Below are positions 33,890 through 36,745 of a DNA stretch of 64,000 bases, piece by piece (the stretch's first letter is position 1; each line of letters starts with the position of its first letter). The translations under genes and the position numbers were made by a program. The stretch is taken from NCBI RefSeq assembly GCF_002854065.1, contig NZ_CP024147.1, one strand, 5' to 3'. The notes beneath the pieces are model-generated. The model was not told the DNA's origin. It was given only the letters and a program-made list of their open reading frames with translations, and ran no database searches. This DNA comes from Escherichia coli (GTDB lineage: Bacteria > Pseudomonadota > Gammaproteobacteria > Enterobacterales > Enterobacteriaceae).

Positions 33890-34894
<1,005 letters not shown>

Positions 34895-34940
34895 CAAAAG
34901 CAATTTTTCCGGCTATCTGTATACAAAAACGCCGCAAAGT

Positions 34941-34954
34941 TTGAGCGAAGTCAA
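34941..34954. promoter_or_regulatory. FNR-binding site TTGAGCGAAGTCAA centred ~42 bp upstream of fnrS
   Basis: Close match to TTGAT-N4-ATCAA; class II spacing to the sRNA 5-prime end. Confidence 0.6.
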
Positions 34955-34989
34955 TAAACTCTCTACCCATTCAGGGCAATATCTCTCTT

Positions 34990-35111
34990 GCAGGTGAATG
35001 CAACGTCAAGCGATGGGCGTTGCGCTCCATATTGTCTTACTTCCTTTTTTGAATTACTGCATAGCACAATTGATTCGTACGACGCCGACTTTGATGAGTC
35101 GGCTTTTTTTT
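34990..35111 (+). ncRNA. fnrS: FnrS small RNA (FNR-activated, Hfq-dependent)
   Basis: Sequence gcaggtgaatgcaacgtcaagcgatgggcgttgcgctccatattgtc... recognised from memory as FnrS; ends in hairpin gacgccgactttgatgagtcggc plus T8; lies between zntB and dbpA as in K-12. Confidence 0.85.
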
Positions 35112-35168
35112 GCCTGTTATTTATCAGCGTCTACCCTTTAAGAGTCCACCCAATGACCGGAGGGAAAT

Positions 35169-35342
35169 ATGACGACACTTATTTATTTGCAAATTCCTGT
35201 CCCTGAACCGATTCCTGGCGATCCTGTTCCAGTTCCCGATCCGATCCCTCGCCCGCAACCCATGCCTGACCCACCACCCGATGAAGAACCGATTAAATTG
35301 TCGCATCGTGAGCGTAGATCTGCGAGGATACGCGCCTGCTAA
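35169..35342 (+). CDS. Candidate small proline-rich protein (57 aa) with strong Shine-Dalgarno, immediately upstream of dbpA
   Basis: ATG at 35169 preceded by GGAGGG at suitable spacing; translation MTTLIYLQIPVPEPIPGDPVPVPDPIPRPQPMPDPPPDEEPIKLSHRERRSARIRAC; below the ORF-track size cutoff; no homology evidence available to me. Confidence 0.3.
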   Translation: MTTLIYLQIPVPEPIPGDPVPVPDPIPRPQPMPDPPPDEEPIKLSHRERRSARIRAC

Positions 35343-35371
35343 CTTTGCGTCGATGACCACGAGAATAGATT

Positions 35372-36745
35372 GTGACCGCTTTTTCTACCCTGAATGTTTT
35401 GCCTCCCGCCCAACTCACGAACCTTAATGAGTTGGGTTATTTAACCATGACGCCGGTGCAGGCCGCCGCGCTTCCGGCGATCCTTGCCGGAAAAGATGTT
35501 CGCGTGCAGGCGAAAACTGGCAGCGGCAAAACGGCGGCTTTTGGCCTCGGCTTGTTACAGCAAATTGATGCGTCGCTATTTCAAACCCAGGCTTTAGTGC
35601 TGTGTCCTACGCGTGAACTGGCGGATCAGGTGGCAGGTGAATTGCGTCGGCTGGCGCGTTTTCTGCCAAATACCAAAATTTTGACGTTGTGCGGTGGTCA
35701 ACCGTTCGGTATGCAGCGTGATTCGTTGCAACATGCGCCGCATATTATCGTGGCAACGCCGGGCCGTTTGCTGGATCACCTGCAAAAAGGCACGGTATCA
35801 CTGGATGCGCTGAATACTTTGGTGATGGATGAGGCCGACCGCATGCTGGATATGGGATTTAGCGATGCCATTGATGATGTCATCCGTTTTGCGCCGGCAT
35901 CTCGACAGACGCTTCTGTTTTCGGCAACCTGGCCGGAAGCCATCGCCGCAATCAGCGGACGAGTGCAACGCGATCCTTTGGCGATTGAAATTGACTCAAC
36001 AGATGCTTTGCCACCCATTGAACAACAATTTTATGAGACATCCAGTAAAGGCAAAATTCCTCTGTTGCAACAGTTATTAAGCTTGCATCAGCCATCCTCT
36101 TGCGTGGTGTTTTGCAATACCAAAAAAGATTGCCAGGCTGTCTGCGACGCGCTGAATGAAGTAGGGCAAAGTGCATTGTCATTACACGGCGATTTGGAGC
36201 AACGCGATCGCGATCAGACCCTGGTACGTTTTGCTAACGGTAGCGCCCGTGTACTGGTCGCGACTGATGTTGCTGCGCGTGGTCTGGATATTAAATCGCT
36301 TGAGCTGGTGGTGAACTTTGAGCTGGCGTGGGACCCTGAAGTTCATGTACATCGCATCGGTCGTACAGCTCGTGCAGGAAATAGCGGTCTGGCGATCAGT
36401 TTCTGTGCTCCGGAAGAAGCACAGCGGGCCAATATCATTTCTGACATGTTGCAGATAAAACTTAACTGGCAAACGCCGCCAGCTAATAGTTCCATTGTGA
36501 CGCTGGAAGCAGAAATGGCAACGTTGTGTATCGATGGCGGGAAAAAAGCCAAAATGCGCCCGGGTGATGTATTAGGTGCACTGACAGGAGATATCGGGCT
36601 TGATGGCGCAGATATAGGCAAAATCGCCGTGCATCCGGCGCATGTCTATGTCGCGGTCCGTCAGGCTGTTGCTCATAAAGCATGGAAACAGTTACAGGGC
36701 GGGAAGATTAAAGGAAAAACGTGCCGGGTGCGGTTATTAAAATAA
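35372..36745 (+). CDS. dbpA: ATP-dependent RNA helicase DbpA (DEAD-box, 23S rRNA-specific)
   Basis: ORF track 457 aa, alternative (GTG) start; motifs AKTGSGKT and DEAD (VMDEADRM). Confidence 0.92.
   Translation: MTAFSTLNVLPPAQLTNLNELGYLTMTPVQAAALPAILAGKDVRVQAKTGSGKTAAFGLGLLQQIDASLFQTQALVLCPTRELADQVAGELRRLARFLPNTKILTLCGGQPFGMQRDSLQHAPHIIVATPGRLLDHLQKGTVSLDALNTLVMDEADRMLDMGFSDAIDDVIRFAPASRQTLLFSATWPEAIAAISGRVQRDPLAIEIDSTDALPPIEQQFYETSSKGKIPLLQQLLSLHQPSSCVVFCNTKKDCQAVCDALNEVGQSALSLHGDLEQRDRDQTLVRFANGSARVLVATDVAARGLDIKSLELVVNFELAWDPEVHVHRIGRTARAGNSGLAISFCAPEEAQRANIISDMLQIKLNWQTPPANSSIVTLEAEMATLCIDGGKKAKMRPGDVLGALTGDIGLDGADIGKIAVHPAHVYVAVRQAVAHKAWKQLQGGKIKGKTCRVRLLK

Follow-up and report, generated by a model that had tools for sequence, protein, structure and literature searches.

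In Escherichia coli, ynaL is most plausibly a stand-alone small-protein gene beside fnrS rather than a leader of dbpA

Introduction

Between the small RNA gene fnrS and the helicase gene dbpA of Escherichia coli lies an open reading frame (ORF) of 57 codons that is rich in proline and is preceded by a strong ribosome-binding site. Does it encode a small protein in its own right, does it serve as a regulatory leader for dbpA, or is it noise? The original prediction for this DNA, made from the letters alone, had favored one of the first two answers and called the ORF unannotated. We took up the question in a window of 64,000 nt, which is the whole stretch of E. coli DNA analyzed here (contig NZ_CP024147.1); coordinates are those of the window unless a genome position is indicated, and all features described lie on the + strand.

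The locus is the known E. coli arrangement zntB-fnrS-ynaL-dbpA. Taken as a whole, we read ynaL as a validated small protein gene that stands alone and is not a leader of dbpA, with a probability of about 0.85. The gene ynaL and the FnrS RNA were already known; what is new here is the linkage of ynaL to fnrS, the division of YnaL proteins into two C-terminal classes, the origin of the YnaL tail in dbpA promoter DNA, and a candidate σS-like −10 element upstream of ynaL.

Results

Identity of the proline-rich ORF

The ORF spans positions 35169-35342. It opens with an ATG at 35169, 4 nt after the end of a GGAGGG Shine-Dalgarno (SD) sequence (35159-35164), and closes with a TAA at 35340-35342. The 57-codon frame and its SD are thus present as originally described, and the Pro-rich string quoted at the time is found exactly in the translation. 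The distances given for it also hold: the ATG had been placed about 55 nt past the FnrS terminator (measured, 57 nt) and the end of the ORF about 30 nt before the start of dbpA (measured, 29 nt to the GTG at 35372). The label “unannotated” has to be withdrawn. A 541-nt query over the ynaL region has matches in 5392 of the 5426 complete E. coli genomes searched; the annotation “protein YnaL” or “proline-rich small protein YnaL” appears in all 30 of the E. coli matches listed. In both RefSeq records that were examined in detail the bounds of ynaL are exactly 35169-35342 (WP_001296046.1; CDS 1790-1963 of the record), and the counterpart in K-12 is ynaL, b4743 (genome positions 1409308-1409481). 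YnaL also has a Pfam family of its own, PF23677 (“Protein YnaL-like”), which it matches across residues 1-57 of 57 with 136.9 bits against a gathering threshold of 27.

VanOrsdel 2018 (PMC6001520) reported a protein with the same 57 residues, encoded between fnrS and dbpA; there YnaL was detected by immunoblot of a chromosomal SPA-tagged version, and ynaL also gave a positive result in a screen by tetracycline ribosome profiling. Epitope tagging at the native locus and ribosome profiling, both proposed with the original prediction as ways to check it, therefore have positive outcomes for the same 57-aa sequence. The proline-rich ORF is the known small protein gene ynaL (b4743), experimentally detected since 2018. 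Among searchable main texts, ynaL was found only in VanOrsdel 2018, and the searchable literature returned no function, partner or phenotype for YnaL.

FnrS and its promoter

The upstream neighbor can be defined end to end. FnrS, including its intrinsic terminator, occupies 34990-35111 (K-12 b4699), as had been proposed. The Rfam model RF01796 matches window positions 34990-35107 with 134.8 bits (gathering score 60; E = 2.8e-25), and positions 1-119 of the 119 in the covariance model are covered. The terminator scan finds a strong terminator with an 8-bp GC-rich stem (35084-35103) followed by a T8 tract (35104-35111). At the other end, the supplement of Cho 2014 places the FnrS transcription start site (TSS) at the G at 34990, with 55,305 reads. 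The −10 hexamer CAATAT (34977-34982) was assigned from sequence and conservation; the block GCAataTc is conserved 8 nt 5′ of the fnrS +1 across 120 species.

The FNR binding site of the fnrS promoter, TTGAGCGAAGTCAA (34941-34954), agrees with TTGAT-N4-ATCAA at 8 of 10 positions. As a statistical signal alone the box was rejected, since the consensus TTGATNNNNATCAA with two mismatches allowed has 51 matches in the window where ∼38 are expected; because such matches are common, the site is validated by its position and conservation. Its center lies at −42.5 relative to the mapped TSS, close to the class II position (∼−41.5) of FNR-dependent promoters, and this offset is constant in 120 of 120 fnrS loci, 87 of which carry TTGA-N6-TCAA and most others a CTGAT...TCAA variant. 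In Myers 2013 (Table 1) a single FNR site, also at −42.5, lies under the fnrS ChIP-seq peak. The class II FNR site predicted for FnrS is borne out by these data, and FnrS here is the FNR-activated anaerobic sRNA known since 2010.

Conservation of ynaL and selection on its core

To follow the ORF through evolution, fnrS loci were sampled with a degenerate FnrS pattern, taking one genome per species and orienting each locus on FnrS, in 120 Enterobacterales species; sampling on the FnrS pattern means that the loci were chosen without bias toward the ORF. The Pro-rich ORF is kept in 78 of these 120 species, where it usually starts 160-180 nt past the FnrS pattern and ∼57 nt past the terminator. 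Each of the 78 copies opens with ATG, and 77 have a GGAGG/GGAG-type SD in the corresponding position. The gene is spread throughout Enterobacteriaceae and Erwiniaceae; Pectobacterium, Acerihabitans and Biostraticola have copies at a greater distance, and in the 120-species sample no ynaL ORF was found by fnrS in Serratia, Yersinia, Rahnella, Hafnia, Dickeya, Edwardsiella or Photorhabdus.

A codon alignment of 77 ynaL sequences carries the pattern expected of a protein-coding frame under purifying selection. Mean entropy is 0.77, 0.63 and 1.63 bits at codon positions 1, 2 and 3, respectively; proline codons are invariant (CC) at positions 1-2 and near-random at position 3 (for example, CCG 22, CCC 20, CCT 18 and CCA 16). 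Over the conserved acidic Pro-X core, residues 9-41 (IPVPEPIPGDPVPVPDPIPRPQPMPDPPPDEEP; 35193-35291), the Nei-Gojobori pN/pS is 0.31 (0.307), versus 1.3-2.4 in four control frames, while the N-terminal ∼15 residues are nearly without constraint (pN/pS ∼0.8). The synonymous excess lies in the annotated frame, which is open in 78 species. Conservation at the codon level across Enterobacteriaceae, the remaining check that had been named, is therefore strong; together with the tagging of VanOrsdel 2018 it upholds the earlier view of the ORF as a possible real small protein and “not noise”, a point that was already published.

A family hidden Markov model (HMM) built from 38 members was searched against 1.84e9 representative proteins and returned 43 matches, of which 21 were inspected and all 21 are ynaL-like. 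The matches are 39-135 aa long, except for one protein of 825 aa (E = 5.8e-4). The codon pattern, the pN/pS and the HMM matches together show that the core is selected as protein and that the family is a narrow one, made up of small proteins that stand alone. On these comparisons, the acidic Pro-X core is the only selected part of YnaL.

Predicted properties of the YnaL protein

E. coli YnaL has 16 prolines among its 57 residues, and its core (9-41) contains seven D/E and a single K/R. AlphaFold2 (AF2) with the family alignment gives a pTM of 0.22 and a model in which DSSP assigns neither helix nor strand; pLDDT is 85-94 over residues 11-40, although a high pLDDT on a Pro-rich rod is little informative on function. 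The prediction for the core is thus a polyproline-type rod, extended and unfolded, that lacks any globular fold. Such a peptide would most likely act free, via protein-protein contacts.

Polyproline tracts stall ribosomes, and EF-P relieves this stalling. A PPP motif is present in YnaL of 68 of 77 species; of the two classes of the protein defined below, DPPPD occurs in 25 species of class A and a C-terminal DPPPH in 31 species of class B. In E. coli the PPP codons of DPPPD (residues 34-38) lie at 35271-35279 and are the expected EF-P-dependent stall site. Because these tracts are conserved, a requirement for EF-P is expected, and it is plausible that YnaL synthesis should need this factor.

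Transcription of ynaL

How is a gene that begins 57 nt past a strong terminator transcribed? The only strongly conserved block of the fnrS-ynaL spacer is tCTAyrCTTAAag, ∼39 nt 5′ of the ATG. The σS extended −10 is given as KCTAYRCTTAA, with C at −13, in the passage of PMC5650638 that quotes Weber 2005. Matches to this motif at 9 or more of 11 positions occur in 68 of 78 species (versus 5.7% of shuffles), most often at −39 from the ATG, and among the 68 matching species the C, T, A and final T of the motif are invariant. The E. coli sequence, TCTACCCTTTA (35130-35140), with TACCCT as its hexamer (35132-35137), agrees at 9/11 positions only; the predicted TSS is ∼35144. A TTG-type −35 lies 16-18 nt 5′ of the motif, as TTGCCT in Enterobacteriaceae and as TTGCCA or TTGGCT in Erwiniaceae; in the window the predicted −35-like TTGCCT (35110-35115) falls at the end of the FnrS T-tract, 16 nt 5′ of the −10-like hexamer, and this spacing is conserved in Enterobacteriaceae. 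The motif is missing after fnrS in genera truly without ynaL. We put at about even odds the proposal that ynaL transcription would start at the σS-type −10 TCTACCCTTTA, with a −35 overlapping the FnrS T-tract.

The candidate came only from cross-species conservation; a σ70 consensus scan of 34600-35600 gave no promoter-like sites. In the K-12 data of Cho 2014, which cover four conditions, no TSS falls in the stretch from the FnrS terminator to the ynaL ATG, nor any near 35144, and there is no σS ChIP region at ynaL; the only region there is a σ70/RNAP one (SigD_567/RNAP_656; genome positions 1406867-1407567). With neither a TSS nor a σS peak, the four conditions lend the predicted promoter no support in K-12. 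The locus is absent from Peano 2015. Pairing of CCCUU (35134-35138) with the GAGGG of the SD was considered and dropped, as the UAUGCUU and UAAGCUU variants found elsewhere cannot pair with their SDs.

Given the K-12 data of Cho 2014, read-through stays a live, if doubtful, alternative. Here ynaL would have no promoter of its own and would be transcribed past the FnrS terminator or as part of the zntB transcript, FNR would co-induce YnaL anaerobically, and CTAyrCTTAA would be an RNA or processing element. The K-12 start-site and ChIP data fit this proposal, as do the extreme strength of the FnrS TSS, the 4,235 reads at that of zntB (Cho 2014), and a fnrS-ynaL spacing of ∼57 nt that is kept in most species. 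The form and the location of the motif argue the other way. Its invariant C−13, T−12, A−11, C−8 and T−7 are the −10 positions of σS/σ70 promoters and are accompanied by the TTG-type −35 at 16-18 nt. In Intestinirhabdus a gene of ∼1.1 kb is inserted after fnrS, yet the motif stays with ynaL, ∼40 nt from the ATG; in Pectobacterium TCTATACT precedes a ynaL-like ORF that is 400-640 nt from fnrS. The strength of the FnrS terminator also speaks against read-through, and dbpA goes unmentioned in the main text of Myers 2013, the study of the FNR regulon.

The YnaL tail and the dbpA promoter

Downstream of ynaL, the dbpA coding sequence (35372-36745) has a GTG start preceded by a weak, conserved SD-like CGAGA (35360-35364). 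Its strongest TSS in Cho 2014 is at genome position 1407501 (126 reads, σ70), which corresponds to the G at window position 35338. This start lies 9 nt past GAGGAT (35324-35329), part of an extended −10, TGcGAGGAT (35321-35329), and 2 nt before the stop codon of ynaL. The dbpA promoter region lies inside the 3′ end of ynaL, at 35289-35338, and begins with the conserved segment CCGATTAAATTGTCGC (35289-35304).

Several lines of comparison indicate that this segment is conserved as DNA. In the YnaL class that includes E. coli (class A, below), pS is 0.17 in the tail and 0.60 in the core, and the pN/pS of the tail is 0.87. Two blocks, CCGATTAAAtTGTCGC and AGATCTG(C/A)GAGGATACGCGCC, hardly vary, be they within the ORF or past an earlier stop, the position of the ynaL stop shifting by ∼30 nt between species. 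Where dbpA is located elsewhere, an extended −10 of the homologous form TGnTAnnnT occupies the equivalent site 5′ of its GTG, with the sequence TCTGCTACACT, TCTGCTAAACT or TCTGTTACACT. Kluyvera has lost the Pro-rich ORF and retains dbpA together with the upstream block. A UCGCA/UGCGA hairpin in the ynaL tail was considered separately and rejected: Kosakonia-type sequences break its pairing without compensation, and RNAalifold finds nothing.

With the block conserved as DNA and a TSS at 35338, the ∼17 codons that close ynaL (PIKLSHRERRSARIRAC) are translated dbpA promoter DNA, without selection as protein, in the Escherichia-Salmonella-Citrobacter-Enterobacter-Klebsiella group. The basic tail at the C terminus of the E. 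coli protein is therefore a by-product of the dbpA promoter. Tagging the C terminus of E. coli YnaL, or deleting the gene, will disturb that promoter; with the dbpA TSS only 2 nt before the ynaL stop, this is a practical warning for the interpretation of ynaL mutant phenotypes.

Two C-terminal classes and their gene neighborhoods

YnaL proteins end in one of two ways. Class A (32 species, among them Escherichia, Salmonella, Citrobacter, Enterobacter, Klebsiella and Leclercia) ends in ...DPPPDEEPIK(L/M)S..., followed in some members by ...RRSARIRAC. For 31 of these species dbpA comes next or the contig ends before dbpA could show, and where dbpA is visible its start lies 28-63 nt past the ynaL stop; the exception is Enterobacter BIGb0383, in which ttcA is directly 3′ of ynaL. 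Class B (45 species) comprises Erwiniaceae and Pluralibacter, Cedecea, Phytobacter, Siccibacter, Franconibacter, Buttiauxella, Mangrovibacter and others, and ends in ...DPDPxPIIDPPPH. Class B proteins average 37% Pro, a net charge of −5.4 and a pI of 4.4. The ttcA-adjacent forms with this ending, from Erwiniaceae and several Enterobacteriaceae, score just under the PF23677 cutoff (21.4 and 26.6 versus 27 bits).

Across the 77 species, ynaL is without dbpA downstream in 45, and in 37 of the 45 class B species a convergent ttcA homolog follows directly; the ynaL-ttcA gap contains a strong hairpin (z < −2) in 28 of these 37. The order zntB > fnrS > ynaL > < ttcA is the widespread and probably ancestral layout. 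On this comparison the stable evolutionary partner of ynaL is fnrS, not dbpA. The best reading of ynaL is that of an independent gene, with a short leader and a strong SD, which has stood beside fnrS since before the Enterobacteriaceae/Erwiniaceae split.

Discussion

Relation of ynaL to dbpA

Two further proposals would tie ynaL to its E. coli neighbor. The broader one, which we consider unlikely, joins the separate observations into a single system: fnrS and ynaL would be a conserved sRNA/small-protein pair whose expression is mechanically coupled, the −35 of ynaL being built from the T-tract end of the FnrS terminator, so that heavy FNR-driven transcription and termination of FnrS would either occlude the σS-type ynaL promoter or feed it by read-through; the acidic, EF-P-needing polyproline peptide would be a stationary-phase or anaerobic effector; and translation across the dbpA promoter would link dbpA to EF-P status. 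Were this true, a 50S-assembly helicase, the product of dbpA, would be tied to EF-P status in the Escherichia clade.

The narrower proposal builds on the regulatory leader suggested in the original prediction and holds that ynaL is a cis-acting leader in which polyproline stalling, dependent on EF-P or prolyl-tRNA, tunes the transcription or translation of dbpA. The E. coli arrangement invites it: the two genes lie on the same strand 29 nt apart, the terminator scan finds no terminator between them, dbpA begins with GTG behind a weak SD, DPPPD is conserved in 25 of the 32 species with dbpA adjacent, and a possible operon was suggested in VanOrsdel 2018 (PMC6001520). The comparative and transcript data nevertheless leave this reading highly improbable. 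The linkage is not conserved, given the 45 of 77 ORF-bearing species without dbpA downstream, and the promoter block goes wherever dbpA goes, in Kluyvera even without the Pro-rich ORF. The main dbpA transcript starts at 35338, past the Pro-rich codons, and the variable position of the ynaL stop also counts against a leader. No coupling through RNA structure was found either: RNAalifold, applied to the ynaL 3′ part up to the dbpA start in 17 species, returned no conserved structure (−4.5 kcal/mol, covariation −0.03, 0 compensatory pairs), and the lack of a terminator between the genes counts here too. Because 45 species have ynaL without dbpA next to it, ynaL is not ancestrally a dbpA leader; a dependence of dbpA on the ynaL reading frame is not supported, none being detectable.

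That the ORF is translated noise, or owes its conservation to an antisense Gly-rich frame or a DNA element, has a negligible probability and is largely refuted already: the antisense GGN frame, which shares its wobble position with sense CCN, has an equally low pN/pS (0.295 versus 0.307, so that dN/dS alone fails to discriminate the two frames), and the N terminus and Escherichia-type tail lack protein-level constraint, but the antisense frame contains stops in 54 of the 78 species, the sense frame with its ATG and SD stays open, near-random third positions of the Pro codons exclude DNA-level constraint on the core, and the published detection of tagged YnaL, together with the stops, decides the matter.

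Comparison with known systems

With its two reference systems the locus agrees in every respect compared. For FnrS (RF01796), the full-length match, the terminator, the FNR site at −42.5 and the TSS are all as in the known sRNA, with no differences; for YnaL (PF23677; RefSeq WP_001296046.1), sequence, position and coordinates are the same and there are no differences, as befits the same gene. Arrest and leader peptides, such as SecM, TnaC and polyproline/EF-P-sensitive ones, resemble ynaL in being short ORFs with a strong SD, a conserved peptide, a PPP motif and, in E. coli, a gene downstream. Unlike leaders of the SecM/TnaC type, ynaL has no conserved target gene and no alternative RNA structure, and its neighbor has a TSS of its own.

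Two groups of proline-rich proteins offer likenesses in the peptide itself. Homology to TonB was considered and rejected as compositional only: over residues 9-43, PF16031 (TonB_N) scores 11 versus 33 bits and NF008084 scores 20.8 versus 315 bits. What YnaL has in common with the polyproline spacer of TonB is the alternating acidic X-Pro pattern (EP/IP/VP) and a predicted extended rod; it differs in having no membrane anchor and no C-terminal TonB domain, and its family measures 39-135 aa only. Proline-rich antimicrobial peptides (apidaecin, oncocin and Bac7) contain Pro-X motifs of the PRP/PQP type and are strongly cationic. YnaL shares motifs of this type with them, but its core is acidic.

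Deletion, decay and rearrangement of ynaL

In two Kluyvera genomes of the species set (one genome per Enterobacterales species, 120 species; L044 and L087), the proline-rich part of ynaL is deleted, at approximately +120 to +230 past the FnrS pattern used to orient the loci. Of the motif upstream of ynaL the two loci retain a remnant (GCTACCCTGAT), whereas their dbpA promoter block (CCGATTAAtTTGTCGC...AGATCTGCGAGGATACGCGCC) is complete; they are natural deletions of the ynaL core with dbpA kept. The gene is frameshifted after ...PIPR in Leclercia adecarboxylata (L108; +170 to +350), while Pantoea stewartii (L004; +175 to +200) retains the motif upstream of ynaL, the SD and the ATG, followed by a stop after six codons (MKAIHK, then stop). 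These copies are apparent pseudogenes or sequencing errors.

An ORF of ∼270 residues is inserted between fnrS and ynaL in Intestinirhabdus alba (L074; +100 to +1260); judged by eye from the motif VNDDGI, its putative product resembles a SurE-type nucleotidase. Erwinia persicina, mallotivora, psidii, and phyllosphaerae (L006, L032, L053, and L079) represent a separate local rearrangement. The gene 3' of ynaL is here co-directional, with 65 to 70% identity to E. coli TtcA, against ∼85 to 90% for the convergent TtcA found elsewhere; in E. phyllosphaerae, dbpA comes next after this TtcA-like gene. Erwiniaceae loci (e.g., L004 and L006) carry CTGAT rather than TTGAG as the left half-site of the FNR box upstream of fnrS, at an unchanged position, which is a lineage-specific variant of the FNR site.

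In class B, the form of ynaL ending ...DPDPxPIIDPPPH, a strong GC hairpin lies between the ynaL and ttcA stop codons (e.g., Pantoea agglomerans, L118), with z < -2 in 28 of 37 loci. The A-run on its ynaL side is a T-run for ttcA, and the hairpin looks like the intrinsic terminator of ttcA, serving the convergent ynaL as well.

A search of E. coli genomes placed 6 of 5393 matches to the fnrS-ynaL-dbpA segment on plasmid-labelled records, and one genome held two copies of the segment. Replicons labelled wrongly, or plasmids that carry long stretches of chromosome, may account for these cases.

Expression signals around ynaL and neighboring genes

The predicted ynaL promoter has a -35-like TTGCCT (35110 through 35115) whose two leading T residues are the final ones of the FnrS terminator T-tract, with GCCT following; in most Enterobacteriaceae a fixed 16 nt separates this element from the -10-like hexamer. 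This overlap could couple FnrS termination with ynaL initiation. Farther downstream, dbpA (start region, 35360 through 35374) begins with GTG, or TTG in Kosakonia, preceded by an SD-like CGAGA that is weak yet invariant throughout class A species (those with the other C-terminal form of YnaL, ...DPPPDEEPIK(L/M)S...). Because the start codon is GTG or TTG and the SD-like element only weak, the sequence suggests that dbpA translation initiation is intrinsically low.

Upstream, a 15-codon ORF (33850 through 33897, + strand) is separated by 13 nt from the start of zntB. Its RefSeq name is “protein YnaN” (K-12 ynaN, b4773; one record labels the gene ydaN), and it could be a leader or a small protein for this zinc transporter gene.

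Two weak transcription start sites have been mapped within the ynaL ORF on the + strand (Cho 2014): 1407387 (window 35224; 28 reads, stationary phase and heat) and 1407410 (window 35247; 23 reads, heat). Both were attributed to “C0343;dbpA” (Cho 2014); C0343, an old sRNA candidate, thus shares sequence positions with ynaL, and its signal may simply be ynaL/dbpA mRNA.
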